This document shows, piece by piece, positions 12,511 to 31,756 of a stretch of DNA of 40,163 nucleotides (position 1 is the stretch's first letter; each line of letters begins with the position of its first letter). Position numbers and translations under genes: made by a program. The notes beneath the pieces were generated by a model, which saw only the letters and a list, made by a program, of their open reading frames with translations, was not told the origin of the DNA and made no database searches. This stretch comes from a virus (lineage: Duplodnaviria; Heunggongvirae; Uroviricota; Caudoviricetes), in the IMG/VR virus record IMGVR_UViG_2671180637_000025, positions 1-40,163 of that record, one strand, 5' to 3'.

Positions 12511-12543
12511 TTACCACAACGGTAACTATTACCACGGTGGTTA
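12511..12543. promoter_or_regulatory. Operator-like sites upstream of terminase: TTACCACAACGGTAA (12511..12525) and degenerate TTACCACGGTGGTTA (12529..12543)
   Basis: Part of direct repeat GGTA(A)CTATTACCAC x2; the Thr-rich track translation here looks non-coding. Confidence 0.5.
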
Positions 12544-13139
12544 TGATGCCTGCTGAACCTAAAACCTATAAACGCAAATCAACGCAATTTAAGCCGCTCA
12601 CAGCAATGCAGGAGGCTTATTGCCAGTCATACATCAAAACGCCTGAAAACCAGACTCAGGCAGCGATTAACGCAGGATTCTCCCCAAATACAGCGGCAGT
12701 TAAAGCCAGTGTAATGATGCGCGATGAACGCATTCAAAAACGGATTGCCGAGTTGATGGAGGAGCGCAACAAACGAATGCGCGTCAGTGCTGATTACGTT
12801 CTCATGCGCCTGGTGGAGATCGACCAGATGGACGTGATTGATATCCTCAACGACGATGGAAGCCTTAAGCCAATTCGCGAGTGGCCGAAAATCTGGCGCA
12901 CTACGCTTAGCGGCTTTGATCTGTCATCGACCATCATGAACATGAATGAGGATTCGATAGAGACAATCCTCAAAAAAATTAAATGGCCTGACAAGGTGAA
13001 GAACCTTGAGCTGATTGGTAAGCACGTCGATGTCAATGCATTCAAAGAACGCCTGGATGTTAATGTAAATGTGACAATTGCTGATCGCATAGCAGCAGCC
13101 AGGAAGAGACTGAAAGAACGTCAGGATGGCAATCAGTGA
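12543..13139 (+). CDS. Terminase small subunit
   Basis: AAINAGFSPNTAAVKASVMMRDERIQKRIAEL signature; start placed at ATG 12543 (track ORF begins at TTG 12465); ATGA overlap with large subunit. Confidence 0.7.
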   Translation: MMPAEPKTYKRKSTQFKPLTAMQEAYCQSYIKTPENQTQAAINAGFSPNTAAVKASVMMRDERIQKRIAELMEERNKRMRVSADYVLMRLVEIDQMDVIDILNDDGSLKPIREWPKIWRTTLSGFDLSSTIMNMNEDSIETILKKIKWPDKVKNLELIGKHVDVNAFKERLDVNVNVTIADRIAAARKRLKERQDGNQ

Positions 13140-15477: not shown

Positions 15478-15492
15478 TTACCTGAAGGGTAA
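15478..15492. promoter_or_regulatory. Operator-like site TTACCTGAAGGGTAA upstream of the virion operon
   Basis: Perfect TTACC-N5-GGTAA about 90 bp upstream of ATG 15583. Confidence 0.5.
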
Positions 15493-15582
15493 TAATTCGT
15501 GCGTTAAATGTCAACCATCTACGATAAATAAAACATATGTGGTTAAATTGGTAATAATTTAATTGCGTACGGAGTCATTGAT

Positions 15583-15789
15583 ATGTGCATGGGTAGCTCA
15601 CCATCAGTGCCTGCAACACCAGAAGTTCAGGCAGCACCACAGGAGCAGGATGCCGCCGTTGTTGATGCCCGCGACGAAGAAACTCGTCGCCGTCGCGCTG
15701 CTGCTGGTCGTAGTTCTACGCTGCTTACCGGTTCTCAGGGCGACACATCAACCGCTAATACCAGCGGTAAAACGCTGCTTGGTCAGTAA
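15583..15789 (+). CDS. Small virion protein, T7 gp6.7-like
   Basis: 68 aa; N-terminal MC... and basic, Ser/Thr-rich composition recalled for T7 gp6.7; sits just before the portal as in T7. Confidence 0.45.
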   Translation: MCMGSSPSVPATPEVQAAPQEQDAAVVDARDEETRRRRAAAGRSSTLLTGSQGDTSTANTSGKTLLGQ

Positions 15790-15803
15790 CCGGAGTCATT
15801 GAA

Positions 15804-17483
15804 ATGGCGGAAACAACTAAAGAGCGATTGAACAAACAGTTCGCACAACTTGAAAGCGAGCGTCAGTCGTTCGAGCCGCACTGGCGCGAGTTGAGTGATT
15901 ACATCAATCCGCGTGGTTCCCGCTTTCTGACTTCTGAGGTCAACCGTAACGATCGACGCAATACACGCATTATTGATTCGACCGGGACTATGGCGGCGCG
16001 CACTCTCGCCAGCGGAATGATGTCTGGCATCACAAGCCCAGCCCGTCCGTGGTTTCGCCTGGCTACGCCAGATCCTGAAATGATGGATTATGGCCCTGTT
16101 AAGTTGTGGCTTGAGGCGGTGCAGAACCGCATGAACGATATGTTCAATAAGTCGAATCTCTATCAGTCGCTGCCGCAGTTATACGGAAGCCTCGGCACAT
16201 ACAGCACTGGTGCAATGGCAGTGCTGGAGGATGACGAGGACATCATTCGCACAATGCCATTCCCGATAGGCAGTTACTACCTGGCTAACTCACCTCGTGG
16301 CAGTGTGGACACCTGTTTTCGCAAGTTCTCTATGACTGTTCGTCAGCTTGTTCAGGAGTTCGGGCTAAATAACGTCAGCGAATCCGTAAAAAGCATGTGG
16401 GAAAGCGGCACCTACGAGAAGTGGATTGAAGTGATGCATTCGGTTTACCCGAACATTGACCGCGACACATCGAAGCTGGATAGCAAGAACAAGCCATTCA
16501 AATCGGTTTATTACGAGGTTGGTGGCGACAACGACAAGTTGTTACGTGAATCCGGATTCGATGAGTTTCCAATTATGGCTCCGCGCTGGGAAGTTAACGG
16601 CGAAGATGTTTATGGATCATCATGCCCGGGCATGCTGGCGCTTGGACCTGTTAAGGCATTGCAGCTTCTTCAGAAGCGCAAGTCGCAGTTGATTGATAAA
16701 GCCACCAATCCGCCGATGGTTGCTCCGACTTCCCTCAAGAATCAGCGCGCCTCCCTTCTTCCTGGCGACATCACGTATATCGATCAGATTACTGGTCAGG
16801 ATGGTTTCAGGCCTGCTTATCTGGTTAACCCCAGTACAGCAGATCTGGTGGCAGACATTCAGGACACTCGTCAAATCATTAACAGTGCCTACTTTGTCGA
16901 TCTGTTCATGATGTTGCAGAACATCAATACCCGTTCGATGCCTGTTGAAGCGGTGATCGAAATGAAAGAAGAAAAACTTCTGATGTTGGGGCCGGTTCTG
17001 GAGCGTCTGAACGACGAATGTCTTAATCCTCTCATTGACCGCGCTTTCTCGATGATGGTGCGTAAAAACATGCTGCCGCCACCGCCTGACGCGATGGAAG
17101 GCATGCCCCTGAAGGTCGAATACATTTCCGTCATGGCTCAGGCGCAGAAGTCTATCGGCCTATCCAGTCTGGCGTCCACGGTTAACTTCATTGGTCAACT
17201 TGCGCAAGCGAAACCAGAAGCTCTCGACAAACTCAACGTTGATCAGGCGATCGATGCATTCGCTGATATGTCCGGAGTGTCTCCAACCGTCATTGTTCCG
17301 CAGGAACAGGTTGAGCAGGCTCGCCAGCAACGGGCACAGCAGCAACAGCAGCAACAAATGATGGCGATGGGGATGGCGGCGGCACAGGGTGCCAAGACGC
17401 TAAGCGAAGCTAAAACTTCGGATCCGAGTGTTTTGTCAGCTATGGCGAATGCAGTTAGTGGTCAGGGTGGGCAATCACAATGA
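15804..17483 (+). CDS. Portal (head-tail connector) protein, T7 gp8-like
   Basis: 559 aa; Gln/Ala/Met-rich C-terminal tail (QQRAQQQQQQQMMAMGMAAAQGA) as recalled for T7 gp8; gene order. Confidence 0.8.
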   Translation: MAETTKERLNKQFAQLESERQSFEPHWRELSDYINPRGSRFLTSEVNRNDRRNTRIIDSTGTMAARTLASGMMSGITSPARPWFRLATPDPEMMDYGPVKLWLEAVQNRMNDMFNKSNLYQSLPQLYGSLGTYSTGAMAVLEDDEDIIRTMPFPIGSYYLANSPRGSVDTCFRKFSMTVRQLVQEFGLNNVSESVKSMWESGTYEKWIEVMHSVYPNIDRDTSKLDSKNKPFKSVYYEVGGDNDKLLRESGFDEFPIMAPRWEVNGEDVYGSSCPGMLALGPVKALQLLQKRKSQLIDKATNPPMVAPTSLKNQRASLLPGDITYIDQITGQDGFRPAYLVNPSTADLVADIQDTRQIINSAYFVDLFMMLQNINTRSMPVEAVIEMKEEKLLMLGPVLERLNDECLNPLIDRAFSMMVRKNMLPPPPDAMEGMPLKVEYISVMAQAQKSIGLSSLASTVNFIGQLAQAKPEALDKLNVDQAIDAFADMSGVSPTVIVPQEQVEQARQQRAQQQQQQQMMAMGMAAAQGAKTLSEAKTSDPSVLSAMANAVSGQGGQSQ

Positions 17484-17776
17484 CAGATTACGAAGACGAT
17501 CAACTGAAAGAAGAAAACGCCCGTAAGCAACGTGACATGGCGCAGCGTGAAATTGATGACATTCGCTTTGTCATGAGCAGTGAACAGGGGCGTCGCGTTG
17601 TCTGGTCTGTGCTGGAGAAAGGCCGGGTGTTTTCCGCTATCTCTCCGATGGACGCTATGGCAATGGCATTTAATGAGGGGCAACGCAATCTGGCGCTGGA
17701 ACTGTTTCAGCGCGTTATGGCGCATTGCCCTGAACAGTATTTGAAGATGGCCAAAGAGGCCAGTGAACAGGAGTGA
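17480..17776 (+). CDS. Hypothetical protein (98 aa) between portal and scaffold
   Basis: ATGA overlap with portal stop. Confidence 0.45.
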   Translation: MTDYEDDQLKEENARKQRDMAQREIDDIRFVMSSEQGRRVVWSVLEKGRVFSAISPMDAMAMAFNEGQRNLALELFQRVMAHCPEQYLKMAKEASEQE

Positions 17777-17778
17777 TC

Positions 17779-18474
17779 ATGAATTTATTTGAGCGTTTGC
17801 TGTATCGCCGTCTTTGCAATGAGCAACCAGTCGATGGTGGAGCAGCTCCGGCTGCGTCAGAACCGTCAGCGCCTGCAGGTGATAACCCTGCTCCAGTTGG
17901 TGATCCATCACAACAGGAAGGTGATAAGCCACAACCTGTTGCTGATGGCGATAAACCTGCTGATGACAAAAAGCCTGAAAACGATAAGCAGGATGAAAAA
18001 AAGGACGGCAATAAACCAGAGGGTGCGCCTGAGAAGTACGAGTTTCAGGCTGCCGAAGGCGTAGAGCTGGATACAGAAGCGTTGAAGGAATTCGAGCCGG
18101 TGGCGCGAGAACTTAACCTGACCAACGAGCAAGCGCAAAAGCTGGTTGATGCTTATCCGAAGATTCTGGCAGGTGTTCAGCAGCGCCAGGCAGAAGCCTG
18201 GCAGAAAACAACCGAGCAGTGGGCTGCGGATGTAAAAGCTGACAAAGAAATCGGTGGCGACAAGTTGATTTCTAACCTTAGCGCCGCACAGCGTGCGCTT
18301 GACCAGTTTGGGACACCTGAACTCAAAGAATATCTGAACACCACCGGGCTGGGTAATCACCCTGATCTGGTCAAAACGTTCGTGAAAATCGGAAAGGCGA
18401 TGTCTGAAGATGGCATGGTCACCGGTGGTAATGAAGGCCAGCGTAGTGCGGCCGAAGTGCTCTATGGCAAATAA
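17779..18474 (+). CDS. Scaffolding protein (acidic, Pro/Asp/Lys-rich N-terminus)
   Basis: ATG 17779 behind GGAG; position between portal and capsid; low-complexity acidic region. Confidence 0.6.
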   Translation: MNLFERLLYRRLCNEQPVDGGAAPAASEPSAPAGDNPAPVGDPSQQEGDKPQPVADGDKPADDKKPENDKQDEKKDGNKPEGAPEKYEFQAAEGVELDTEALKEFEPVARELNLTNEQAQKLVDAYPKILAGVQQRQAEAWQKTTEQWAADVKADKEIGGDKLISNLSAAQRALDQFGTPELKEYLNTTGLGNHPDLVKTFVKIGKAMSEDGMVTGGNEGQRSAAEVLYGK

Positions 18475-18488
18475 GAGAGGAAATAACA

Positions 18489-19475
18489 ATGGCTGTTAAA
18501 GGCTTAACTGCGCTAACGCTGGCTGACTGGGGTAAGCGCGTCGATCCAAACGGGAAAGTCGATAAGATTATCGAGCTTCTCGGTCAAACTAACCCGATCC
18601 TTCAGGATATGCCTTTTGTCGAAGGGAACCTTCCTACCGGACACCGAACCACCATTCGTTCTGGTTTACCTTCAGCCACCTGGCGTTTGCTGAACTATGG
18701 CGTACAGCCAAGCAAATCAACCACAGTGCAGGTCACCGACTCCGTTGGCATGCTGGAAACCTATGCTGAAGTCGATAAGTCACTGGCTGATCTGAACGGT
18801 AATACCGCCGAATTCCGCCTGTCTGAAGACCGCGCATTTATTGAAGCGATGAATCAGCAGATGGCGCAGACGCTGTTTTATGGTGACTCCAGCGTTAACC
18901 CTCAGCAGTTTATGGGACTGTCCTCCCGCTATTCCAGCCTGTCTGCGGGTAATGCTCAGAACATCATTGATGCTGGTGGCACGGGTACAGATAACACCTC
19001 AATCTGGTTAGTGGTGTGGGGCGAAAACACCGTGCATGGCATCTTCCCGAAAGGGCAGAAGGCTGGCATCCAGATGGAAGATAAAGGCCAGGTGACACTG
19101 GAAGATGCTAATGGCGGCAAGTACGAAGGCTACCGTACCCATTACAAATGGGACAACGGACTTGCTCTGCGTGATTGGCGTTATGTTGTTCGCATTGCAA
19201 ACATCGATGTCAGCAATCTTTCAGAACCTTCCTCTGCCGCAAATATTGCGAAGTTGATGGTTAAAGCACTGCATCGCATTCCAAACCGTGGCATGGGCCG
19301 CCCGGTGTTCTACATGAACCGCACTGTAGGCCAGGCTCTTGATCTGCAGTCTCTGGAGAAAACATCTCTGGCTATCAGCGTAAAAGAGACTGAAGGCGAG
19401 TGGTGGACTTCATTCCGTGGTGTACCAATCCGTGAAACTGATGCGCTTCTGGAAACAGAAGCCCGCGTGGTGTAA
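18489..19475 (+). CDS. Major capsid protein
   Basis: 328 aa; position after scaffold; strong RBS; followed by a stem-loop. Confidence 0.7.
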   Translation: MAVKGLTALTLADWGKRVDPNGKVDKIIELLGQTNPILQDMPFVEGNLPTGHRTTIRSGLPSATWRLLNYGVQPSKSTTVQVTDSVGMLETYAEVDKSLADLNGNTAEFRLSEDRAFIEAMNQQMAQTLFYGDSSVNPQQFMGLSSRYSSLSAGNAQNIIDAGGTGTDNTSIWLVVWGENTVHGIFPKGQKAGIQMEDKGQVTLEDANGGKYEGYRTHYKWDNGLALRDWRYVVRIANIDVSNLSEPSSAANIAKLMVKALHRIPNRGMGRPVFYMNRTVGQALDLQSLEKTSLAISVKETEGEWWTSFRGVPIRETDALLETEARVV

Positions 19476-19526
19476 CGCCTGTTATTAACCTGTGGGTCGT
19501 AACAGACCCACTAATGGAGAAAGAAG

Positions 19527-19964
19527 ATGATCACCGACAAACTGTTGATGTTCTCCGAAGCTCAGGCGGTTACGAATACCGCGGCTTCTACTGACGTAAT
19601 CGATCTCGGTCCAATTGACGGAAAACGTCGTGATATCGGCGTGGGTTACCCGCTTGAGTTTTGGGCGCTGGTTAACACAGCCGCCGCAGCAAGCGGTGAT
19701 GCAACTGTAAACATCCAGTTGCAGACGAGTGAGGATAACAGCTCATGGACCACTATTTATGATAGTGGTGCACTGGCAAAGACCGCCCTGACAGCAGGTA
19801 AACGAGTTGTTTCAGCAAAGGTGCCTGCCGGTGTTCAGCGATATCTGCGTGTTAACTACTCCGTCGCAACTGGCCCACTAACGGCTGGCGAATTCACTGC
19901 GGGTATCAGTCTTGATGTTGATGCCAATACGCCGTATCCGATCCGCTCAAAAGTAACTGGTTAA
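19527..19964 (+). CDS. Hypothetical virion protein (145 aa)
   Basis: ORF with RBS inside the structural operon. Confidence 0.5.
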   Translation: MITDKLLMFSEAQAVTNTAASTDVIDLGPIDGKRRDIGVGYPLEFWALVNTAAAASGDATVNIQLQTSEDNSSWTTIYDSGALAKTALTAGKRVVSAKVPAGVQRYLRVNYSVATGPLTAGEFTAGISLDVDANTPYPIRSKVTG

Positions 19965-19974
19965 GGTGATATCG

Positions 19975-20310
19975 ATGTCAGGTGAGAAACCAAGATACCG
20001 CGTTCTGCGCCTCTCTCATATCCATAACACTCTGTGGCCGGAGGGGGCAGAAATCGAATACGAAGGTGAGCCTGGTAGCGCACTGGAACCTGTTAACGAT
20101 GCAGCCAGACAGGCAAAAGCAAAAGTTGCAGGAAAGGTGTCAATGGCAGCAACCAGCACCAAAATCATCAACGATGTGTCAGATGATGGTGAACTGGATA
20201 AGCTCCGTGAAGAGTACGAATTGCTCTTTAACGAGAAGCCACACCATAACGCCAAAGCCGAAACGCTCCGCGAGAAGATCGCAGATAAGCGTAAAGAACT
20301 GGGCGTGTAA
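19975..20310 (+). CDS. Hypothetical virion-module protein (111 aa)
   Basis: ATG 19975 behind AAGGTG; alternative-frame ORF 19982..20392 judged spurious. Confidence 0.45.
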   Translation: MSGEKPRYRVLRLSHIHNTLWPEGAEIEYEGEPGSALEPVNDAARQAKAKVAGKVSMAATSTKIINDVSDDGELDKLREEYELLFNEKPHHNAKAETLREKIADKRKELGV

Positions 20311-20326
20311 GCCTCGCGGATCAGAC

Positions 20327-20348
20327 AAGGGGCTTCGGCCCCTTTATT
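20327..20348 (+). terminator. Intrinsic terminator/attenuator inside the virion operon
   Basis: Stem AAGGGGC / GCCCCTT with TTCG tetraloop followed by TATT. Confidence 0.45.
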
Positions 20349-20360
20349 GCAGGAGTGTAT

Positions 20361-20696
20361 ATGGAACTCGTAAACCTCAAAACCGGCACTGACAGCTACC
20401 AGGATGAGAGCGGAGAAACCAGAACTCGCGATGAATACCCGTGGGGGCTGTGCATCACGCTGAATAACGACACATTGAATAAGCTGAAGGCGCAACCTAA
20501 GGGCGTCGGAACAGAAGTGATGATAACTGCAAAGGCTGTTATTCGAGGCCTGTCTGCCAGAGAAACTGACGATGGCGTTAATCGCAGCGCCGATCTGCAG
20601 ATCACTGATATGGCGATCGCTCCTGTTTCCGGGGATGTAGAAAAATCAGCGGCTGAAACTCTGTACGGTAACGGAGGTGAGCGATGGCCTCTGTAG
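20361..20696 (+). CDS. Hypothetical virion-module protein (111 aa)
   Basis: ATG 20361 behind AGGAG. Confidence 0.45.
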   Translation: MELVNLKTGTDSYQDESGETRTRDEYPWGLCITLNNDTLNKLKAQPKGVGTEVMITAKAVIRGLSARETDDGVNRSADLQITDMAIAPVSGDVEKSAAETLYGNGGERWPL

Positions 20697-21289
20697 TAGA
20701 GATCTGTAATCGTGCGCTGTCCAATATTGGCAACAGCCGCAGCATTAACAGCCTGACGGAAGCCAGCAAGGAAGCGGGGGAATGTTCGCTGCACTTTGAG
20801 GCCTGCCGTGATGCTGTGCTTTCTGATTTTGACTGGAACTTTGCTACCAAACGCGTGGCGCTTGCAGATACGAGCAATCCACCGCCTGACTGGGAATATG
20901 CGTACCAATACCCGTCAGATTGTCTGCGCATTACTGAAATTATGCTTCCTGGTGTACGCAATCCAACAGCATCAATGCGCGTTCAGTACGAAGTTGGTGC
21001 AGACACCAACGGAACAGGAAAGTTGATCTACACAGACCAGCCTCAGGCATGGCTCAAGTATGTCTCTCGCGTTTCAGATGTGAACATGTTTGATGCCATT
21101 TTTATGGAGGCGTTAGCCTGGCGTCTTGCGGCAGCTATTAACATGGCGCTGACTGGGAATGCAGACCTCGGTACGTTTGCCCTCAATATGTACAATCGCG
21201 TGATTCTTAGTGCTGGCTCGCATAGCCAGAATGAATCACAGGAACCACAGCCACCGGTTGACGAGTTTACCATTGCGAGGTTGTCCTGA
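20684..21289 (+). CDS. Tail tubular protein A-like (T7 gp11-like)
   Basis: 201 aa; size and position before a ~820-aa gp12-like gene; weak N-terminal resemblance to recalled gp11. Confidence 0.5.
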   Translation: MASVVEICNRALSNIGNSRSINSLTEASKEAGECSLHFEACRDAVLSDFDWNFATKRVALADTSNPPPDWEYAYQYPSDCLRITEIMLPGVRNPTASMRVQYEVGADTNGTGKLIYTDQPQAWLKYVSRVSDVNMFDAIFMEALAWRLAAAINMALTGNADLGTFALNMYNRVILSAGSHSQNESQEPQPPVDEFTIARLS

Positions 21290-23760
21290 TGGCTATCAGT
21301 TGGATCCAGCCCAGCTTTGCCGGTGGTGAGATTGGACCGTCGTTGTACGGTCGTATCGACATGGCGAAGTACCAGGTGGCATTGCGCAAGTGCGATAACT
21401 TTATCGTGCGGCAGTATGGCGGCGTTGAGAATCGACCTGGTACGCGTTTTGTCGGTGCCGCCAAATACCCAAATCGGAAATGCCGCCTGATCCCGTTCCA
21501 GTTCTCGACGGTTCAGACTTATGCTCTGGAGTTCGGACACCAGTACATGCGCGTTATCAAAGATGGTGCGTTGGTGCTGAACAGCAGCAATGTTATTTAT
21601 GAAATTGCCACGCCATATACTGAAGCCGATCTGTTCCGAATTAAATTCACGCAAAGCGCAGACGTGCTTACGCTGGTTCATCCGGCATACCCGCCGAAAG
21701 AGTTGCGCCGCTATGCGCATGACAACTGGCAACTGGTTGATGTGGTAACGAAGAACGGGCCATTTGAAGATATCAATATTGACGAGTCAGTGACGGTTTA
21801 TGCCAGCGCCAGCACCGGGACAATTACGTTAACGGCAAGCGCCTCTATTTTTGGCGCGGAGCAGGTAGGCAAATTGTTCTATCTGGAACAGCCAGCAGTG
21901 GATTCTGTGCCGGTATGGGAAACCAGTAAGAGTACGTCGATTGGCGATATTCGCCGTGCAGACAGTAACTACTATCGCGCCGTTACAGCAGGCAAAACAG
22001 GTACTTTGCGCCCTTCTCATACAGAAGGCACATCATGGGATGGTTGGGGCGGATCCGGTGATGATGATACTGGCATTGAGTGGGAATATCTGCACAGTGG
22101 TTTTGGCATTGCCCGTATCACTGCTGCAAATGGAACTACTGCAACTGCCGAGGTGATTTCCTATATCCCTTCGCAGGTAGTTGGTGAGGATAATGCCAGC
22201 TATAAATGGGCTAAATATGCCTGGAATAGTGTTAACGGTTATCCTGGCACTGTTGTTTATTATCAACAACGTCTTTACTTCGCCGCATCGACTGCGTTCC
22301 CTCAGACTATCTGGGCCAGCCGTACTGGGGATTATAAGGATTTTGGCAAAAGCAATCCTACGCAGGATGACGATAGAATTATCTACACCTATGCCGGGCG
22401 TCAGGTTAATGAGATCCGCCACCTGATTGATGTTGGTTCGCTGGTGGCGCTGACTTCCGGAGGTGAGTACGTCATCACCGGCGACCAGAACAAAGTGTTA
22501 ACCCCATCATCATTTGCATTCAGCTCTCAGGGATCAAATGGCTCAAGCAACGTCCCACCAATTGCCGTGGCGAATATTGCTCTGTTCGTCCAGGAGAAAG
22601 GCAGTGTTGTCCGTGATCTGGCCTATTCATTCGATGTTGACGCCTATCAGGGGAACGACCTTACTATCCTTGCCAATCATCTTTTTCAGAAGCACAGCAT
22701 TGTTGACTGGTGCTTCTCGATTGTCCCTTACTCCAGTGCCTTCTGCATTCGTGATGACGGTAAATTACTGGTGATGACCTATTTGCGTGATCAGCAGGTT
22801 TTTGCATGGGCACCACAATCCAGTACCGGAAAATATGAAAGCACATGCAGTATCAGCGAAGGTAATGAAGATGCGGTGTATTTCGTCGTTAACCGAACCG
22901 TTAACGGGCAAACAGTGAGATACATCGAGCGACTGTCCAGCCGTTTATTTACCAGCGATGAAGATGCTTTCTTTGTTGATTCTGGCCTTAGCTATGATGG
23001 AAGAAATACGTCTGACAGAACGATGATCATCACTGGTGGTTCTGGCGAATGGGATTACCGCGCGGAATATACAATCAGTGTTTCTGGTGGTGCGTACTTC
23101 ACCAGTAGTGATGTTGGTGCGCAACTACAGTTTCCTTATACCGGAACCGATCCTGATACTGGCGATGAAGTGTCAAAAAAATTACGTTGCGACATTGTTT
23201 CTGTAACCAGCAATACCGCTGTAGTGGTTCGTGCTAACAGGAACGTCCCGCCATCCCTCAGGAATGTGGACACCACGAACTGGCAGATGGCGCGCCGGAC
23301 ATTTGGAGGCCTGTCTCATCTTGAGGGCCAGACCGTAAACATTCTTTCTGATGCGAATGTTGAGCCACAGAAAGTTGTTTCCGGAGGTGCCGTCACACTG
23401 GAATCTCCGGGGGCTGTAGTGCACATCGGCCTGCCAATAACTGCTGAATTCGAAACACTGGATATCAACATTAACGGACAGGAAACGCTGCTGGACAAAA
23501 AACAGGTGATCCCGTCCGTTACTCTGGTTGTGAATGCCAGCCGCGGCATCTGGGCGACTACGCCCGGCGGTAAATGGTACGAATATCCACAGCGTGAATT
23601 CGAGTTCTACGATGATCCTGTTGATGACGCTACCGGAAAAGTAGAAGTGAAACTGGACAGTAACTGGGGCAAAAACGGACGTGTAAGAATCCGTCAGCTT
23701 GACCCGTTGCCGCTGTCTGTTCTTGCCGTTATTCCTCGCCTTACTGTTGGGGGATTCTGA
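21289..23760 (+). CDS. Tail tubular protein B-like (T7 gp12-like)
   Basis: 823 aa; size and order; start overlaps upstream stop. Confidence 0.55.
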   Translation: MAISWIQPSFAGGEIGPSLYGRIDMAKYQVALRKCDNFIVRQYGGVENRPGTRFVGAAKYPNRKCRLIPFQFSTVQTYALEFGHQYMRVIKDGALVLNSSNVIYEIATPYTEADLFRIKFTQSADVLTLVHPAYPPKELRRYAHDNWQLVDVVTKNGPFEDINIDESVTVYASASTGTITLTASASIFGAEQVGKLFYLEQPAVDSVPVWETSKSTSIGDIRRADSNYYRAVTAGKTGTLRPSHTEGTSWDGWGGSGDDDTGIEWEYLHSGFGIARITAANGTTATAEVISYIPSQVVGEDNASYKWAKYAWNSVNGYPGTVVYYQQRLYFAASTAFPQTIWASRTGDYKDFGKSNPTQDDDRIIYTYAGRQVNEIRHLIDVGSLVALTSGGEYVITGDQNKVLTPSSFAFSSQGSNGSSNVPPIAVANIALFVQEKGSVVRDLAYSFDVDAYQGNDLTILANHLFQKHSIVDWCFSIVPYSSAFCIRDDGKLLVMTYLRDQQVFAWAPQSSTGKYESTCSISEGNEDAVYFVVNRTVNGQTVRYIERLSSRLFTSDEDAFFVDSGLSYDGRNTSDRTMIITGGSGEWDYRAEYTISVSGGAYFTSSDVGAQLQFPYTGTDPDTGDEVSKKLRCDIVSVTSNTAVVVRANRNVPPSLRNVDTTNWQMARRTFGGLSHLEGQTVNILSDANVEPQKVVSGGAVTLESPGAVVHIGLPITAEFETLDININGQETLLDKKQVIPSVTLVVNASRGIWATTPGGKWYEYPQREFEFYDDPVDDATGKVEVKLDSNWGKNGRVRIRQLDPLPLSVLAVIPRLTVGGF

Positions 23761-24224
23761 TGATCGACGTTCAAATTATTCCCGCTACCGAAGAGCATCT
23801 TCAGATGATTTTGCCGGATGTTCGTCAGGCTGATATTGACGAACTGTATGCGGTATCACTGATGACTACCGAAGATGCGCTGCGTGTTGGTCTTCGCACT
23901 GCGACTATGGCCTGGTCAGGGTTCGCGAACGGAGAACTGGTAACCATGTTTGGTGTATCTCCGGCGTCAATGATCGGTGGCAATGGTACGCCCTGGCTGG
24001 TCGGGACCAGCCGTATTGAAAAATATCAGAAGACATTTCTTCGCCACTGCCGCCCTGTGTTGCAGCAGATGCTGGCAGTTTATCCGCGCCTGGAAAACTA
24101 TGTCGACGAGCGAAACCATGTTGCCAAAGCATGGCTGCACTGGCTTGGATTCAGGATTGAGGAAGCCGCGCCTTATGGTGCTCTTGGTCTTAATTTCCAC
24201 AGATTTCACATGGAGAGAAAATAA
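23760..24224 (+). CDS. Internal virion protein, gp13-like
   Basis: 154 aa; position in the gp11-gp16-like series. Confidence 0.4.
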   Translation: MIDVQIIPATEEHLQMILPDVRQADIDELYAVSLMTTEDALRVGLRTATMAWSGFANGELVTMFGVSPASMIGGNGTPWLVGTSRIEKYQKTFLRHCRPVLQQMLAVYPRLENYVDERNHVAKAWLHWLGFRIEEAAPYGALGLNFHRFHMERK

Positions 24225-24769
24225 TGTGCGATCCGGTTATTGCTGGTGGCGCAATGCTCGCCATGAGTGGCATTCAGGCATACACCCAGTACCAACAGGG
24301 AAAATATGCCTCGAAGGTTGCAGAAGCGAACGCAGATATAGCCACTGCTCAGGCAAATGATGCAATAAACAGAGGTAACGCTGAAGCTGAGCAACGGCGC
24401 AGAGAAACCCGACAGCGGCTTGGTACACAGGCGGCGACAATGGGGGCGACCGGCGCTGATTTATCTACCGGTAACGCGCTGGATATATTTGGCGACACTG
24501 CCCAGTTTGGCGCCCTTGATTCGCTGACGACGGTGAATAACGCGCAACGCGAGGCTTACGGTTATCAGGTTCAGGCTGCCAATTATAAAGCAGAAGCCAG
24601 TTCAGCCCGTAAACAGGGGAATGTGGGAGCAGCAACAACATTGCTCACTGCGCCTCTGAAGGCATACGGTGCGTACCAGATGTTTGGTGGGACGTGGAGT
24701 CCGTTTACTCAAAGCACTCCTGCGCCAATCGGGGCAGCAGCAGGAACCAGATTACCCGGAGGATTATAA
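24224..24769 (+). CDS. Internal virion protein, T7 gp14-like
   Basis: 181 aa; N-terminus MCDPVIAGGAMLAMSGIQAY resembles recalled T7 gp14 MCWAAAIPIAISGAQAI. Confidence 0.55.
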   Translation: MCDPVIAGGAMLAMSGIQAYTQYQQGKYASKVAEANADIATAQANDAINRGNAEAEQRRRETRQRLGTQAATMGATGADLSTGNALDIFGDTAQFGALDSLTTVNNAQREAYGYQVQAANYKAEASSARKQGNVGAATTLLTAPLKAYGAYQMFGGTWSPFTQSTPAPIGAAAGTRLPGGL

Positions 24770-27282
24770 TGCCAGTCGTACCAACAGTATCCGGACGTCA
24801 GGTTGAGAGTCGTGGAGTTCAGTCAGCAGGCTTGCAGACGTTTTCTCAGCCAGGTATTGGTGATGCTTTTGTTCGGGCAGGGACAGAGGCAATTGATGTT
24901 TTGGGGCAGGCAAAACAGCGTGCCAATATCGCTCTGGCTCAGGAGGCATCTCTTAACCTCAGTCAGATAAGCAGCGATCTGCTGAATAATCCTGAAACAG
25001 GTTTGCTTAACCTGAAAGGGAAAAATGCTATTGGAAAAGGTCAGGAGTATACGCAGCAGTTTGATGCTCAGATCGAACAACTGGCTATGTCGCTGCCGGA
25101 TGAACAGGCTCGTAATGCTTTCATGCAGCAGGCACAGCAGCAGCGCATTCAGTTCACTACGCAGGCCGGGAGGTACGAGATAGGGCAAATAAATGCCTAC
25201 GAAGAAGGCCAGTTTCAGGCTACGCTGCTGAACAATGGTAAAAATGCCGCAGCATTGTATGGCGACAACGCCGCATACGTATTGGCTAATAAGCAAACTT
25301 TCCAGCAAATTGAGGATTACGGCATTGCACATGGCTGGATTGACGAGCAAATCCAGGCCAAGAAAATCGAGTTTAAAGAAGCAACAGCAAAAGCAACTGC
25401 TCAAAATGCTATTGGAGCAAACTATCTTCAGGTAAGACAGCAAAACGGCGAGTTAAGCGATACTGCTGCTGGATCTCGCCGTGCTGTAGCAGATAGTGGC
25501 TCTTCCGATCGTACCCGCGGTATACGCAACAATAACCCCGGCAATCTTGAATACAGCAAAACTAATCCGTGGGTTGGGCAGACTGGTGATGATGGGCGCT
25601 TTGCCAAATTCGAAACCCCTGAACACGGTATTCGTGCATTAGGGCGGAACCTGATGTCGTATCAGCGCCAGGGTATTGATACCGTTAGTGAGATAATTAA
25701 TCGCTGGGCACCGCCTACTGATAAAAATGACACTATGTCGTATATCAAAGCAGTGTGCGAACAACTTGGCGTTTCTGCTGATGAGCCTCTCGATGCATCA
25801 AATCCTGATACCCTGAAGGCGCTTTGTGCAGCCATTATCCATCATGAAAACGGTAGCCAGCCATACAGTGATCAGCAGTTAACTGCAGGTGTTAGTGCTG
25901 CGCTTGGGCTTTCTCAGCTACCGACAAAAAATAAACGTTATACCGGTGTAGCCTGGTTCGATGCTTTAAGTGAATCAGATCAGGCCAGCGTGTTGCGACA
26001 GACTGATGCACTAGCCAGACAACAGCAGGCTGAATATAAAACGATGCTCGACAGCCGGGTTCGCGATGCGACGGCTGCGTATATGCGTGGCGTTGAATTT
26101 CCTAACCCACCTGGTGAGGATGATTTTATTGCAGCTTATGGAGTCAGAGAAGGAAACCTGCGATATACCGAGTTTAAGAATACGCAGATCGCCGGACAGT
26201 ATATAGGCTCTTTCCGCAACATGCCGACAAGCAACATTACAGCATATGTTGAGCAATTACGCCCGGATACTGGTGAGACAGGGGAGGGGTATGCGGCACG
26301 CGCAGCTCTTTATGACAACGTTGTTTCGGCTGCAAATCAGGTGATAAAGCAGCGGCAGTCGGATCCTGTGCAGTTCTCTCTTGCCTCCGGACAGGCAAAG
26401 CCTATCGACATGAGCAATAAGGATAACTTTGGACAGAGCGTTGCCTTGCGTGCCGCTCAGGTCAGTGACCTTGCTAAGTCATATGGCACTCCACTGACGT
26501 TCTTTTCCAAAGACGAGGCCAATCAGATCGGTGTTTTCTTTCGTGATGCTCCAGTTTCCCAACAGGCAGCATATCTCGATACCATCAGGCAGAGCACTGG
26601 TGGTGGGCAGGTGTATATGTCAGCACTACAGCAGATCAGTGCCAACGCTCCATCTGCTGCCGTTGCCGGGATACTGATGGACAAGCCTGGTGGTATTTTG
26701 GCAGAAAAAAACTGGTTTAATCCGGATGTTTCCGTGTCTCCTGAAACCGCTGCGCAGACAATTCTTGCTGGCGCGGCGGCTCGTAAAGGTACTGATGATG
26801 CGAAAGGTATTACGATGCCTAAAGATGCTGATCTTCGCCTTGAGTTTTCTGACATGGTGAAGGATGCATTTGCTGGTGATGCTCAGGGGGCATCAATGGC
26901 ATACGAGATCGCAAAGGACTATTACGCTGGTGTGATGGCGAAAAAAGGCGTGGTATCAGGCGAAATTGACAATGATGTCTGGAAACAGGCTGTTAACGTA
27001 GCTACAGGTGGCGTGCATGACTATAACGGAATGGGGAATGTCCTTTTGCCGTGGGGAATGTCTGCAGAGCAATTCGATAAGCAGGTTAATCAGGCTTGGA
27101 ATGAACAAGTTGTCGGCACCGGGATAAAAACACCGCCTGGTCAGTATGGTTTGCAAAGTTATGGTGATAGTCAGTACCTGGTGAAACTTGGTACTGGTTA
27201 TCTGCTGAAAGATGATGGTTATCCTGTTGTTCTTGATCTGACACAGAAGCGTCAGAGATTCTCCGGAGATATTCCGCAATGA
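24769..27282 (+). CDS. Internal virion / ejection protein, gp15-like
   Basis: ATG 24769 overlapping upstream TAA, RBS GGAGGA; 837 aa; conserved block RGIRNNNPGNLEY...IINRWAPPTDKNDT that I cannot assign. Confidence 0.55.
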   Translation: MPVVPTVSGRQVESRGVQSAGLQTFSQPGIGDAFVRAGTEAIDVLGQAKQRANIALAQEASLNLSQISSDLLNNPETGLLNLKGKNAIGKGQEYTQQFDAQIEQLAMSLPDEQARNAFMQQAQQQRIQFTTQAGRYEIGQINAYEEGQFQATLLNNGKNAAALYGDNAAYVLANKQTFQQIEDYGIAHGWIDEQIQAKKIEFKEATAKATAQNAIGANYLQVRQQNGELSDTAAGSRRAVADSGSSDRTRGIRNNNPGNLEYSKTNPWVGQTGDDGRFAKFETPEHGIRALGRNLMSYQRQGIDTVSEIINRWAPPTDKNDTMSYIKAVCEQLGVSADEPLDASNPDTLKALCAAIIHHENGSQPYSDQQLTAGVSAALGLSQLPTKNKRYTGVAWFDALSESDQASVLRQTDALARQQQAEYKTMLDSRVRDATAAYMRGVEFPNPPGEDDFIAAYGVREGNLRYTEFKNTQIAGQYIGSFRNMPTSNITAYVEQLRPDTGETGEGYAARAALYDNVVSAANQVIKQRQSDPVQFSLASGQAKPIDMSNKDNFGQSVALRAAQVSDLAKSYGTPLTFFSKDEANQIGVFFRDAPVSQQAAYLDTIRQSTGGGQVYMSALQQISANAPSAAVAGILMDKPGGILAEKNWFNPDVSVSPETAAQTILAGAAARKGTDDAKGITMPKDADLRLEFSDMVKDAFAGDAQGASMAYEIAKDYYAGVMAKKGVVSGEIDNDVWKQAVNVATGGVHDYNGMGNVLLPWGMSAEQFDKQVNQAWNEQVVGTGIKTPPGQYGLQSYGDSQYLVKLGTGYLLKDDGYPVVLDLTQKRQRFSGDIPQ

Positions 27283-29081
27283 GTTACTTTGGCCTTAATC
27301 CAGTAAACCAGAATCAGCAGCTTGACGAAGCAGCATCAAATCCAGCTGGCTTTAACAGCGATGTTGGTTTTTTCGACAATGCTGCAGGAGCGGCATTGTC
27401 TGGTTTGTACTCCGGGCTGGTGGCAAAGCCAGATCAGTTGCTATGGGCAGGGATGGATAAAATCGTATCCCCGATTGCTCAGTTTGTTAACGAAAACACC
27501 TCGCTCAATGACACTTCAGTTTCATACATTGCTGAGCAGAGAAAACTAGCAGAGCAGCAGGTTAAGCGGCTGACGCCTGATGCCGCGACAACCGGAACCG
27601 CCGGGCAGGTCCTTTATGGGTTGTTCGATATGGGCGGGCAGGCTGTTGTCGGTACAACGCTCGGTGGTCCGGTCGGAGGTGCTGCGGCGGTAACTTCGCT
27701 ACAGGGTTTTTCTGAGTTTGAACGGCTGACAGCACAGGGTGTTGATTTCAGGACGGCGCAGGAAGCGGGATTAGTGCTGGGTATTACTGCTGGTGCCGGA
27801 ACACTGATCCCTATGAGCCTCGGGTTACGTGCTGGTGGTGCGCTGGCGGAAGGTGTGGCGGCTCAGCTTGCACGGACGGGTGAGAGTTCAGTGCGACGCG
27901 CCGCAGCAACAGCAGTACGTGCAACGCCAGATATTGCCTATGCCGCAGGTACAAATATTGCGTTCGGTATGGCACAGCGTGGGCTTACTGCAAAAACGCT
28001 TCGTGATGGTGGCTATAGCGAAATGGCTAACCAGTATGATGTGTTGGATCGACAGGCAATTGCTATTGATGCTGTTCTTGGGGTGGCGTTTGGTGGTGTC
28101 GGCAGATTTATTAACTCTCGCGGCGAGTCTACAAGCGCCCCAAATTTTTCACCAGTTGATATCGATGCTGCACTGGCGGCGAATGCCGCTCATCATGCTG
28201 AAATTGATATTGCTCCCGGCGTGCCGATCAACGTGCTTTCGCGCAATTCTCACATTCAGGCTCTGCGAAAAGCTATGTCTGATGTTAGCCAGGGGAGACC
28301 TGTAGACGTTGCCAGCATTGTTGAGCCTGCATCTTTCAGTGAAATTCCTGGGCGCAAGAATCTGCTGTCTCAGGCAGTTAATGAGGCTCTGTCATCTGTA
28401 GATGATGGAGTAACGGCGCGTGCTATCGAAAATCGGTTGCTTGAAGAACAGGCTGCGCAGCTTTTGCCGCGTGGCGATAGACAGGTTTACCAGTCTGAAA
28501 TCGCTAATAGCCAACGAATTATCGACAATCTCACTGAACAGCGCGCACAAATTCTTGCAGAAGAGTCAACTGGTAGCGGTAAAGCTTTGTCTCGTGCTCG
28601 ATCAGATAAACAGGTCAGACTTCGCGATATTGACCAACGAATCCGGCAGGCACAAGAACGCCTGGAATTTTCCCGTAACGCGTTGGCACCGCATGAGCCT
28701 GGCGGTCAGTTTTTTGAAGCTCGAGCAGAACTGGCACGGAGACAGCAGGCTGAAAGTGAACTTAATGCTCAGGCTGTTTCATTCTATAAAACAGCAGAGG
28801 TCAGGACGCCAGACGAAGTAGCTCCTTTTGAGCCCGGTAAGATATTGCAACAGGCAGAACAAAAGATGATGGCAGATCCGGCAGGAGATATTGATCTGCG
28901 CATAGCTGAAGACTCGCTGCTTGAATCACCTGACATGATAATCACCGTGCTGGATGATGATGGTAATCCACAATCGCGCAGTGCGCGTGAAGTACTGGAT
29001 GAAGCGAACATGGAAAGTGAGCAGGCAATACAGGATTCCAGCCTGTTTGATGTCGCTGTGGCGTGTTTCTTGAGAGGTTAA
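27279..29081 (+). CDS. Internal virion / ejection protein (gp16-like, part 1)
   Basis: 600 aa; Gly/Ala-rich N-terminal region; ATGA overlap with upstream gene. Confidence 0.5.
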   Translation: MSYFGLNPVNQNQQLDEAASNPAGFNSDVGFFDNAAGAALSGLYSGLVAKPDQLLWAGMDKIVSPIAQFVNENTSLNDTSVSYIAEQRKLAEQQVKRLTPDAATTGTAGQVLYGLFDMGGQAVVGTTLGGPVGGAAAVTSLQGFSEFERLTAQGVDFRTAQEAGLVLGITAGAGTLIPMSLGLRAGGALAEGVAAQLARTGESSVRRAAATAVRATPDIAYAAGTNIAFGMAQRGLTAKTLRDGGYSEMANQYDVLDRQAIAIDAVLGVAFGGVGRFINSRGESTSAPNFSPVDIDAALAANAAHHAEIDIAPGVPINVLSRNSHIQALRKAMSDVSQGRPVDVASIVEPASFSEIPGRKNLLSQAVNEALSSVDDGVTARAIENRLLEEQAAQLLPRGDRQVYQSEIANSQRIIDNLTEQRAQILAEESTGSGKALSRARSDKQVRLRDIDQRIRQAQERLEFSRNALAPHEPGGQFFEARAELARRQQAESELNAQAVSFYKTAEVRTPDEVAPFEPGKILQQAEQKMMADPAGDIDLRIAEDSLLESPDMIITVLDDDGNPQSRSAREVLDEANMESEQAIQDSSLFDVAVACFLRG

Positions 29082-29086
29082 ATTAA

Positions 29087-31534
29087 ATGAGACAGGAATG
29101 TATACAAGCGGTTCAGCAGGCGGCGCAGCGCACGTTAACGGCGCGAGAAATACAGAACATTGAAGACCGCATTTATCGAAATATGCGCTCCATTGCTCGT
29201 GATGACCCGATGTCGTGGAGACAACTTTCCGAATCAGAGCGGCTATATCGAGCAGCACAATTGGCATCTGAAGAATTACAGCGAGAAGCGGCATTAAAGA
29301 AACGTCGTGTGGCCCTCACTATAGCTGCACGTCAGAGATTGGATAAATTTATCAATAGCTATCAAGGGGCTGATGGGAAACTTGGCGCTCTTAACCGTAC
29401 TATTGCTTTTAATGCAGACGGTAAATCGAATTTCCTCTCTGTTGAATCCAGAACAAAAGCCACTCGTGATTATGCATTGAGTCAATTGCAGGAGGCATTC
29501 GAAGCAGTTGATCCCCGCTTTTTTGGTCTGTTTGAAGATGAAGCGGGCGTACGTGACCTGGTATATGAAATGCGGGGGCAAAATACTGGCAATGCTAAAG
29601 CAAGAAAAGGTGCTAAGGCATGGAGAGAAGTTACAGAGCTGCTGCGCCGCCGGTTTAATGATGCTGGTGGGGACATTGGCTATCTCGAAAACTGGGGGAT
29701 CCCTCAACATCATTCTATGGAAAAGGTTGGGGCGGTATCAAAAGATAAATGGGTTAGCGATGTTATAGGTAAGCTGGATCGCAAATATTATACCCGAGCC
29801 GATGGACAACTGATGAACGATGCCGAGTTGTCTGCATTTCTTGGAGAGGCTTATAACACGATCGCTACTGGTGGGCTGAATAAGCTTACTGATACCGGAA
29901 TGCGAATTTCCGGCGCACGTGCTAACCGTGGTAATGCATCACGACAGATACATTTCAAAGATGCAGATTCCTATCTGCAATATCAGCAACTTTATGGCGA
30001 TCGCTCTCTATGGGAAATCATGGTCGGTCACCTGGAAGGTATCAGTAAAGATATTGCACTGGTGGAAACATATGGCCCAAACCCCGATCATGTTTTCCGC
30101 TCTCTTCTTGATCAGGTGAAGGCAGAAACGGCAACAGCTAACCCGAGTAAAACCGGTAAAGTCGAGCGGCTGGCGAACAACACAGAGAATCTGTACAACT
30201 TTATTTCCGGAAAGACACAGCCTGTAGCGAATCCGCACATCGCGCGATGGTCTGACAATATCCGCAACTGGCTGGTTGCCAGCAGACTCGGATCCGCGTT
30301 GCTGTCATCGTTCTCTGATCTTGGAACCATGTATCTGTCTGCGAAGGTTACCAACCTTCCAATGAACCAGTTATTCCGCAACCAGCTTGAAGCTATGGAC
30401 CCAACGAACCGTACAGAACTTGCGCGGGCGCGCCGCGCTGGTCTGGCGATGGAATCTCTACTTGGCAGCGTTAACCGCTGGGCGATGGATAATATGGGGC
30501 CGTCAGTGTCTCGTTGGGCGGCAACGGCGGTAATGCGTGCCAGTGGGCTTACAGCATGGTCAGATGCGCACAAGCGCGCCTATGGCGTAACCATGATGGG
30601 AAGCCTGGGAGAAGTAGTGTCACTGACACCAGACCTTCGTAGCCTCGATGACTCTGATTTTCGTATCCTGAAAAGCAAAGGGATTACTGACACAGACTGG
30701 AGCGTATGGAAGCTGGCGCAACAGGAGGACTGGGGGAACGGTAATAATACGATGCTGACACCGGAAAGCATTATGCGTATCCCTGATTCAGCAGTTAAAC
30801 ATCTTGGTGAGCCTGAGCGCGTGAAATTTGAGGCAATGCGTAAATTGCTCGGTGCCGTAACTGAAGAAGTTGATATGGCTGTTATTACACCGGGAGCTCG
30901 TGAGCAACTGATAACCGGTTCTGGTATTCAGCGTGGAACATGGAAAGGTGAATTAACGAGAAGTGTTTTCCTGTTTAAATCGTTCCCTATCTCGGTTGTT
31001 ATGCGTCACTGGTCACGCGCTATGGGTATGCCGTCTGCTGGTGGGCGTGCGGCATATATTGCGACGTTTATTGCCAGTACGACCATTCTTGGCGCTTTGT
31101 CGCAGCAACTTAACGACCTTGCGTCTGGTCGTAATCCTCGAGAGATGACAGGAGAAGATGCCGCAAAATTCTGGCTTGGTGCTCTACTGAAAGGTGGTGG
31201 TCTTGGCCTTTACGGTGACTTTTTATTGTCAGATCACACTAGGTACGGAAGCGGCGCGCTGGCGTCGATGCTTGGCCCGGTAGCTGGTCTGGTTGATGAC
31301 GTAGTGAAGATTGCTCAGGGCATACCGTTAAATGCTGTGGAAGGGAAGAGTGAGCAGACTGGTGGTGATCTGGTGAAGCTGGGGAAAGGTTTGATGCCAG
31401 GTGCGAATCTCTGGTACTTGAAGGCGGCTCTCGATCACATGATCTTTAACCAGATGCAGGAGTATTTTTCACCAGGCTATTTGCGTAAAATGGAGCAACG
31501 TTCGAAGAAAGAGTTTAATCAGACATACTGGTAG
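29087..31534 (+). CDS. Internal virion / ejection protein (gp16-like, part 2)
   Basis: 815 aa; Gly-rich C-terminal segment; last large gene before the accessory island. Confidence 0.5.
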   Translation: MRQECIQAVQQAAQRTLTAREIQNIEDRIYRNMRSIARDDPMSWRQLSESERLYRAAQLASEELQREAALKKRRVALTIAARQRLDKFINSYQGADGKLGALNRTIAFNADGKSNFLSVESRTKATRDYALSQLQEAFEAVDPRFFGLFEDEAGVRDLVYEMRGQNTGNAKARKGAKAWREVTELLRRRFNDAGGDIGYLENWGIPQHHSMEKVGAVSKDKWVSDVIGKLDRKYYTRADGQLMNDAELSAFLGEAYNTIATGGLNKLTDTGMRISGARANRGNASRQIHFKDADSYLQYQQLYGDRSLWEIMVGHLEGISKDIALVETYGPNPDHVFRSLLDQVKAETATANPSKTGKVERLANNTENLYNFISGKTQPVANPHIARWSDNIRNWLVASRLGSALLSSFSDLGTMYLSAKVTNLPMNQLFRNQLEAMDPTNRTELARARRAGLAMESLLGSVNRWAMDNMGPSVSRWAATAVMRASGLTAWSDAHKRAYGVTMMGSLGEVVSLTPDLRSLDDSDFRILKSKGITDTDWSVWKLAQQEDWGNGNNTMLTPESIMRIPDSAVKHLGEPERVKFEAMRKLLGAVTEEVDMAVITPGAREQLITGSGIQRGTWKGELTRSVFLFKSFPISVVMRHWSRAMGMPSAGGRAAYIATFIASTTILGALSQQLNDLASGRNPREMTGEDAAKFWLGALLKGGGLGLYGDFLLSDHTRYGSGALASMLGPVAGLVDDVVKIAQGIPLNAVEGKSEQTGGDLVKLGKGLMPGANLWYLKAALDHMIFNQMQEYFSPGYLRKMEQRSKKEFNQTYW

Positions 31535-31744: not shown

Positions 31745-31756
31745 ATAGGTGACTAC

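Follow-up and report, generated by a model that had tools for sequence, protein, structure and literature searches.

A virion-assembly operon of T7-type gene order in a phiV10/epsilon15-like prophage of Escherichia coli

Introduction

How does an integrase-bearing prophage come to carry its virion genes in an order that recalls phage T7? The question is raised by positions 15583-31534 of a 40,163-nucleotide (nt) stretch of Caudoviricetes DNA (IMG/VR record IMGVR_UViG_2671180637_000025, positions 1 to 40,163), the whole of which we call the window. An initial annotation, made from the letters alone, described these positions as a T7-like structural module inside a prophage under lambdoid regulation, driven from host-type promoters with a shared operator, and called the whole a mosaic of two lifestyles. 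Here, we find that the region is, with high probability, the virion-assembly operon of a temperate short-tailed phage of the phiV10/epsilon15 kind, and that its resemblance to T7 reflects ancient common descent rather than a recent hybrid.

Phages of this kind are well described. Those of the phiV10 group (phiV10, ZX5 and others) have been isolated and are short-tailed; ZX5 is temperate and its repressor silences its lysis genes; and phiV10, epsilon15 and ZX5 integrate at the 3' end of guaA via the same attP core (PMC9782041). Homology of epsilon15 gp11, gp12, gp13, gp14 and gp17 to T7 gp11, gp12, gp13, gp14 and gp16, respectively, was published in 2016 (PMC4819975), and the T7 relation of the epsilon15 ejection proteins was taken up in a 2022 review (PMC8954989). 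Both the phage type and the T7 relationship of its tail and ejection ensemble are, thus, already known.

Results

Several lines of evidence identify the element. First, positions 15583-31534 are 97-98% identical in nucleotide sequence, over their full length, to the Escherichia phages HEMP4, phiv142-3, vB_EcoP_ZX5, phiV10 and PAS61 of the genus Uetakevirus (for phiV10, NC_007804, 97.3% across 100% of the region), and Salmonella phage epsilon15 matches at ~75% identity with 46% of the region covered. The likeness to the Uetakevirus phages includes gene order, integrase, attP/attR core, repressor and the position of the terminase. Second, the map of open reading frames (ORFs) is collinear with the RefSeq tables of phiV10 and epsilon15 (terS-terL-gp3-portal, through the large virion proteins, to tailspike, lysis genes, int and early genes). 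For all 18 proteins compared, i.e., the 15 of the module, both terminase subunits and the tailspike (N-terminus), epsilon15 encodes homologues in the same order, with identities of 28-88% in the module; the comparison with epsilon15-like temperate podoviruses that the initial annotation had proposed came out positive for every module protein. Third, the prophage frame is present. The integrase is followed by RecT, an exonuclease, an MT-A70 methylase, the repressor, and DnaT-like and lambda-P-like replication genes, all recognized in family scans; the lysis genes sit between tailspike and attR; and the attR core, ATTGAGTGGGAATGATT, is identical to the published attP core of phiV10, epsilon15 and ZX5 (PMC9782041). 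By nucleotide identity, collinear map and attP core at the guaA 3' end, the element belongs to Uetakevirus. Altogether, the whole window is one phiV10/epsilon15-like prophage, running from integrase to attR and inserted into E. coli at the guaA 3' end. The module is, as initially described, inside an integrase-bearing, repressor-controlled prophage. The lambdoid hallmarks seen are a helix-turn-helix (HTH) repressor that has operator sites on its flanks, and one gene resembling lambda P.

Prophages of this type are common. Among 5,426 complete E. coli genomes, 570 match 15583-31534, and at least 80% of the region is carried in 298. The remainder of the element is more variable: the early region (1-15582) is ~97% identical to Uetakevirus phages with 51-70% covered by any single phage, and any single phage matches only 45-60% of the tailspike/accessory region (31535-39002). 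Membership of Autographiviridae was considered and rejected; the window has no RNA polymerase or phage promoters, carries integrase, repressor and attR, has genes on both strands and places the terminase upstream. A P22-like module could also be considered, since the element is an enterobacterial podovirus that is temperate and has both a tailspike and ejection proteins, and P22 too has gp13/gp14-type proteins in synteny (PMC4819975). However, P22 does not occur among the nucleotide matches listed, all of which are of the phiV10/epsilon15 group, the portal and capsid protein fall into PF12236 and PF20911, and the ordered best match of every protein is its epsilon15 counterpart. These nucleotide matches, Pfam families and best matches refute a P22-like assignment, and we attach practically no probability to it.

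The virion genes form a compact operon (Table 1). The region starts at the ATG of a gene for a 68-amino-acid (aa) protein and ends at the stop codon of a gene for an 815-aa protein, so that both ends given initially are exact. It holds 15 genes on one strand at 99% coding density, with gaps of -13 to +51 nt and four consecutive ATGA start/stop overlaps; all 15 ORFs are intact and tightly coupled, and each is full-length when set against phiV10 and epsilon15. The order is 68-aa protein, portal, Bbp19-like protein, 231-aa protein, capsid protein, cement protein, 111-aa protein, staple protein, adaptor, nozzle, gp13-like protein, gp14-like protein and proteins of 837, 600 and 815 aa, and family scans bear out a T7-type order. 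In these scans adaptor and nozzle are labelled 'tail protein' and the gp13- and gp14-like proteins 'internal virion protein'. The initial annotation passed over four genes, namely the Bbp19-like one and those three that lie between capsid and adaptor.

Homology to T7 was found for five of the encoded proteins. First, the portal and T7 gp8 belong to the same Pfam family, PF12236, and cross-match at the level of PHROG profiles (window portal to phrog_449, expectation value (E) 1.6e-23; T7 gp8 to phrog_332, E 1.5e-31). Local alignment of the two proteins scores 103 against 41.6 +/- 5.8 for shuffled sequences (z ~10). Their Q-rich tails (last 110 aa) alone score 76 against 34.7 +/- 6.1 (z ~6.8), a value reached by 0 of 2000 shuffles, so that the T7-like tail pointed out earlier is real. 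The portal also matches that of phage Carin-1 (8ck0_A, E 5.7e-179), and these data identify it as a predicted dodecameric portal of the T7 type. Second, the nozzle family profile (32 sequences) finds the nozzles of Carin-1 and LME-1 (E 3.2e-58 for LME-1) and 'tail tubular protein B' of cyanophage A4 (E 3.8e-10), and hhalign aligns residues 322-439 of the nozzle with residues 351-466 of T7 gp12 (E 6.8e-5). The same central domain of gp12 was reported by Hardies et al. (PMC4819975); PF25675 did not match the nozzle in Pfam scans. A scan of viral contigs for the nozzle gave 80 loci, all 99% identical, that were of no use for profile building. Third, the 154-aa protein and T7 gp13 both match phrog_308 (E 1.1e-42 for T7 gp13) and align with each other in hhalign (E 1.2e-3), with a sub-threshold match of the 154-aa protein to PF11090 (E 0.095). 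Fourth, the 181-aa protein shares PF24072 with T7 gp14 and is named 'virion core protein, T7 gp14 family' by PGAP, which confirms the gp14 resemblance. Protein searches of portal and gp14-like protein, again a check proposed with the initial annotation, thus place both in the families of their T7 counterparts. Fifth, the predicted structure of the adaptor matches four T7 gp11 entries in Foldseek (best 7box_M, E 2e-6, probability 1.0, TM 0.55-0.58), besides the Carin-1 connector (8ck1_E, E 2.1e-16, 33% identity) and LME-1 (E 4.7e-9). By sequence, neither the family profile against PDB sequences nor hhalign gave a signal to T7 gp11, and the adaptor is linked to it by predicted fold only. Adaptor and nozzle together make up the short tail.

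These homologies could suggest a recent chimera, with a temperate lambdoid backbone having received the structural module from a lytic phage of the T7 kind. The order portal, adaptor, nozzle, gp13, gp14 and large proteins is indeed that of T7, and the early region is a mosaic with lambdoid and Stx phages, with 530 phage records matching parts of 1-15582. Four observations argue against such an event. BLASTP and phmmer searches of every module protein against T7 found nothing significant in the right place, and the similarity emerges via profiles and folds only; because these pairwise programs gave no significant ordered T7 matches, pairwise sequence cannot test the T7 claim. Capsid, cement, staple and terminase come from non-T7 families. 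The arrangement is fixed across the genus and in the distant relatives epsilon15, Carin-1 and LME-1 (and in BPP-1 and BcepC6B according to Table 2 of PMC4819975). Finally, the nozzle family comprises 18,326 related representative clusters, i.e., this tail type is very widespread. A recent chimera is, therefore, highly improbable, and the term 'mosaic of two lifestyles' overstates the case: T7-type order and homology of five proteins stand, a recent T7-like/lambdoid mosaic does not.

Some observations weigh against the main reading. T7 gp15 has no detectable similarity to any module protein in pairwise BLASTP and phmmer searches, and hhalign of the 815-aa protein against T7 gp16 gave E 0.18 with a shallow profile of 3 sequences. 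In a simple scan, no consensus sigma-70 promoter rose above background in or upstream of the module, including beside the operator site at 15478, so that the host-type promoter of the initial annotation was not recovered there. The attL site lies beyond the window, and because of this the completeness of the prophage is only inferred. Lastly, the accessory gene at 14702-14896 (minus strand) is probably truncated. The last two observations bear on the possibility that the element is a defective or cryptic remnant whose virion genes no longer function. It could draw on attL lying outside the window, on the match of this Gp49-family ORF being confined to the C-terminal third of the family profile, and on a holin pseudogene in a related strain. 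By contrast, none of the 15 module ORFs is disrupted, plaque-forming isolates match the region at 97-98% identity (PMC9782041), and the window has integrase, repressor, terminase, tailspike and lysis genes as well as attR. We, therefore, regard a defective prophage as unlikely and favor an operon capable of virion assembly. By analogy with near-identical isolates, the present prophage would be expected to form a short-tailed particle.

The head shell differs from that of T7. The capsid protein matches structures from BPP-1 (3j4u_A, E 9.6e-129), Carin-1 (8cjz_Y, E 1.2e-87) and epsilon15 (3j40_A, E 2e-85), and its family, PF20911, is other than the T7 gp10 family, PF21703; the search of the capsid protein, proposed alongside those of portal and gp14, thus went against a T7 assignment. 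With a PF20911 capsid protein, a Bbp16-type cement protein and a gp10-type staple protein, the shell is, as judged from protein families, of the epsilon15/BPP-1 type. For this lineage a non-circularly permuted HK97 topology has been described (PMC3863775), from which we take the predicted fold of the present protein, and the epsilon15 terminase and capsid have been grouped with siphovirus lineages (PMC4819975). The capsid protein is nearer to BPP-1 (Bbp17) than to epsilon15 gp7. The head shell as a whole (18489-20696: capsid, cement, gp9-like and staple) is 36-43% identical to epsilon15, whereas identity reaches 81-88% for the portal, adaptor and nozzle on either side. This difference, together with the affinity of the capsid protein to BPP-1, suggests that a head-shell gene cassette was swapped within the genus.

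The 231-aa protein encoded between portal and capsid is named 'peptidase' or 'protease' in hundreds of database entries, while the initial annotation called it a scaffold. It matched no protease family in Pfam or NCBIfam. An indel-rich Pro/Asp/Lys linker precedes a C-terminal half that is helical and conserved, AlphaFold predicts helices throughout at low confidence (pLDDT 44), and the family profile matched nothing among PDB sequences. The capsid protein lacks a long N-terminal propeptide (PF20911 spans residues 19-328). Given the lack of a protease family, the linker and helical half, the all-helical model, the gene position and the lack of a capsid propeptide, the protein is probably the scaffold, and this label is likelier than 'peptidase'.

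The 68-aa protein occupies the position of T7 gp6.7, which belongs to the core, wraps around the Q-rich barrel of the portal and is ejected along with gp14 (PMC11784390). Across 25 homologues M1, C2 and a C-terminal KTLLG are invariant. Against T7 gp6.7, hhalign gave E 0.018 at a probability of 2.6%, the pairwise score fell within the range of shuffled sequences, and PF17570, the family of gp6.7, did not match the protein even at E <= 10. The N-terminal resemblance to gp6.7 noticed initially amounts to Met-Cys and a few residues and is not significant; with hhalign and shuffles giving no support, and only position, size, Met-Cys and few residues in common with gp6.7, we do not treat the protein as a homologue of T7 gp6.7 or gp7.3. 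That the Met-Cys protein is nevertheless the functional counterpart of gp6.7 and, at the same time, the 231-aa 'peptidase' the scaffold is a joint proposal that we put forward tentatively and consider rather doubtful.

Three large proteins, which gene position links to T7, complete the operon. The 837-aa protein has a central cell-wall-lytic domain at residues ~249-403 that matches the 1295-aa Gp29 chain 9vvp_L (residues 3-151, E 7.5e-39) and the endolysin 7q47 (2.1e-17). The 600-aa protein has hydrophobic segments at residues 165-183 and 260-278, and the 815-aa protein had no match among PDB sequences. In epsilon15, gp15 and gp16 were assigned through synteny only, while gp17 was assigned as IVP-D (for internal virion protein D; equivalent to T7 gp16) in an extended family in which two joined profile sets match at E 8e-19 (PMC4819975). 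A T7-like core stack has been described for epsilon15 in the ejection-protein review of 2022 (PMC8954989).

Transcription of the operon also departs from T7. A tblastn search of the window with T7 gp1 had a best E of 1.3, i.e., no phage RNA polymerase was found, in agreement with the initial annotation, and the T7 promoter consensus had 0 matches with up to 3 mismatches allowed. Because no phage polymerase is present, host RNA polymerase would have to transcribe the virion operon. The palindrome TTACC-N5-GGTAA occurs at 13 sites in the window versus 0.76 expected (5198, 5260, 5972, 6020, 6357, 8279, 8341, 12511, 12529, 15478, 33044, 34077 and 34457), which bears out the shared operator proposed earlier. 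Its sites flank the repressor gene and precede terS (two sites), the portal operon, an antirepressor unit and the tailspike gene (34457), and in the RefSeq record of epsilon15 this motif is marked as a repressor binding site at equivalent places, including upstream of the terminase, gp3 and tailspike. The copy at 15478, TTACCTGAAGGGTAA, suggests that the prophage repressor could shut off the virion operon directly, and late operons more generally may be repressed in this way via the palindromes before terS, the portal operon and the tailspike gene.

The terminase genes lie upstream of the virion genes, at 12543-14611, as initially noted. The small and large subunits are 77% and 94% identical to epsilon15 gp1 and gp2, had no match to T7 gp18 or gp19 in BLASTP and phmmer searches, and follow a regulator gene of phrog_536 ('transcriptional regulator'). 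An ATGATG at 12543 probably begins terS downstream of a terminator hairpin (12474-12491) and two operator sites. The start annotated in phiV10, a TTG equivalent to 12465, would enclose both the hairpin and the two operator palindromes. Because it would put these elements inside the gene, the ATGATG at 12543, the equivalent of the epsilon15 start, is the more plausible start.

The tailspike gene lies beyond 15583-31534, and its product gave no sequence signal to T7 gp17, so that the gp17 resemblance put forward initially was not upheld. Residues 1-117 match the virion-anchoring domain D1 of the Carin-1 tailspike Dpo31 (E 3.8e-23; PMC13317679), and residues 504-681 have a weak GDSL/SGNH esterase match. 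About 100 nt downstream of the gene, an ORF at 37081 for a membrane protein heads the lysis cluster; there is no O-antigen acyltransferase gene after the tailspike gene, unlike in phiV10 and E. coli strain Z1323CEC0007.

Other loci differ within the group. The ORF at 14702-14896, between terminase and operon, matches only the C-terminal 52 residues of phrog_4846 (140 positions) and adjoins a tRNA-Arg(TCT) at 15079-15155; strain Z1323CEC0007 has ~190 nt more between the terminase and the 68-aa gene. In this strain (NZ_CP148463, 1-41737), lysis genes are found both ahead of the integrase and at the far end, and the record matches in two places, which indicates that two related prophages sit there in tandem at guaA. 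On the minus strand of the window, a C4 antisense RNA (33859-33945, 79.5 bits) and isrK (33964-34040, 76.8 bits), both at Rfam gathering level, lie directly upstream of a Bro-N antirepressor-like gene (33124-33963, minus strand), with an operator palindrome at 34077. From its sequence features, this unit looks like the immI antirepressor control of the P1/P7 type inside Uetakevirus.

Table 1. Coordinates of the virion-assembly operon and of other features of the prophage
Feature	Coordinates	Strand	Assignment
Tyrosine integrase	1..1251	+	PF13356, PF00589, PF22022; collinear with phiV10p31; left prophage end in window
Two-HTH repressor, 194 aa	5332..5916	-	Flanked by operator sites
Terminase, small and large subunits	12543..14611 (small to 13139; large 13136-14611)	+	PF03592; phrog_51, phrog_2
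Repressor-type palindrome	15478..15492	.	91 nt upstream of the operon's first ATG
68-aa protein	15583..15789	+	Epsilon15 gp3 homologue, 88% identity; phrog_831 (function unknown); just upstream of portal
Portal	15804..17483	+	T7 gp8 type, Q-rich C-terminal barrel tail; PF12236 E 1.6e-187
Bbp19-like protein, 98 aa	17480..17776	+	PF25181 E 2.8e-17; phrog_528; role unknown; no T7 counterpart
231-aa protein, probable scaffold	17779..18474	+	Database name 'peptidase'/'protease'; between portal and capsid genes
Major capsid protein	18489..19475	+	Epsilon15/BPP-1 lineage; PF20911 E 2e-149 (epsilon15 gp7 family)
Capsid cement protein	19527..19964	+	Bbp16-like (jellyroll); PF21190 E 2.8e-47; PGAP 'Bbp16 family capsid cement protein'
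111-aa protein	19975..20310	+	Epsilon15 gp9 homologue, 40% identity; phrog_590 E 3.5e-61; function unknown
Capsid staple protein	20361..20696	+	Epsilon15 gp10-like; PF21628 E 7.8e-52; PGAP 'capsid staple protein'
Adaptor (tubular tail protein A), 201 aa	20684..21289	+	T7 gp11 fold, predicted (AlphaFold pLDDT 87); phrog_394, phrog_9239 'tail tubular protein'
Nozzle (tubular tail protein B), 823 aa	21289..23760	+	T7 gp12 homologue; Carin-1 nozzle 8ck1_A E 9.6e-217
Internal virion protein A, 154 aa	23760..24224	+	T7 gp13 homologue; phrog_308 E 1.3e-62
Internal virion (ejection) protein B, 181 aa	24224..24769	+	T7 gp14 family; PF24072 T7_gp14 E 2.5e-7, 31.2 bits (cut-off 27), residues 1-160
837-aa internal/ejection protein	24769..27282	+	T7 gp15 position; 57% identity to epsilon15 gp15; PHROG 'tail injection transglycosylase', 'endolysin'
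600-aa internal/ejection protein	27279..29081	+	Epsilon15 gp16 homologue, 33% identity; phrog_1145 (function unknown); role by position only
815-aa internal/ejection protein	29087..31534	+	Epsilon15 gp17 homologue, 28% identity; phrog_684 'virion structural protein'
Tailspike	34576..36978	+	Outside 15583-31534, same virion; N-terminus 45% identity to epsilon15 gp20
attR core	38986..39002	+	Right prophage boundary; host genes yfgI, yfgH next

Discussion

In the operon at 15583-31534, portal, scaffold position, capsid, adaptor, nozzle, gp13, gp14 and the large internal proteins follow one another as in T7, and homology is demonstrated for the portal, the adaptor (by fold), the nozzle (in its central domain), gp13 and gp14. 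It differs from T7 in many other respects. The prophage is temperate and has neither an RNA polymerase nor phage promoters; its terminase is encoded upstream of the virion genes and is unrelated to gp18/gp19; its capsid protein is of another family with a permuted fold (PMC3863775). Moreover, the module has four extra head genes (cement, staple and two small genes), three large internal proteins rather than two, and a lytic domain inside the first of these, whereas in T7 the SLT domain opens gp16. Finally, the virion has a tailspike instead of a fibre.

Within the phiV10/epsilon15 group the differences are smaller. Compared to phiV10, the 815-aa protein departs from phiV10p20 in its last residues, and the distal part of the tailspike, with no O-acetyltransferase gene after it, sets the prophage apart from the phiV10 group. 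Epsilon15 shares the operator motif and has a closely similar portal (81% identity), adaptor (84%) and nozzle (88%); however, identity falls to 36-43% for its capsid, cement, gp9 and staple proteins and to 28-33% for the last two large proteins. Among solved structures, those of the marine phage Carin-1 (8CK0, 8CK1, 8CJZ) and of the Legionella phage LME-1 (9EFK), both described as having T7-like portal-tail complexes (PMC12407071), come closest for portal, adaptor, nozzle, capsid and tailspike anchor. The two phages have other hosts. Besides the adaptor (33% identity), the Carin-1 matches range from E 3.8e-23 to 9.6e-217; those of LME-1 are weaker (E 3.9e-5 and 1.4e-15).

These comparisons allow a model of how the internal proteins may act. 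Based on gene position, virion studies of epsilon15 and the T7 model, we infer that the 68-, 837-, 600- and 815-aa proteins would be packaged as an internal core on the portal. At infection, this core would be ejected through the nozzle and would build a channel across the cell envelope, and the lytic domain of the 837-aa protein may cut the cell wall during ejection.

The finding has little import beyond correct annotation: this is a common type of E. coli prophage, whose relatives have been isolated, sequenced and, in part, solved by cryo-electron microscopy. Database labels could be corrected from 'peptidase' to probable scaffold and, for 'hypothetical' genes, to adaptor, nozzle and ejection proteins. 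The practical value is that the module is placed in the right family and that attention is drawn to the small Met-Cys protein as a candidate core component of a tail and ejection ensemble that is common to most short-tailed phages.

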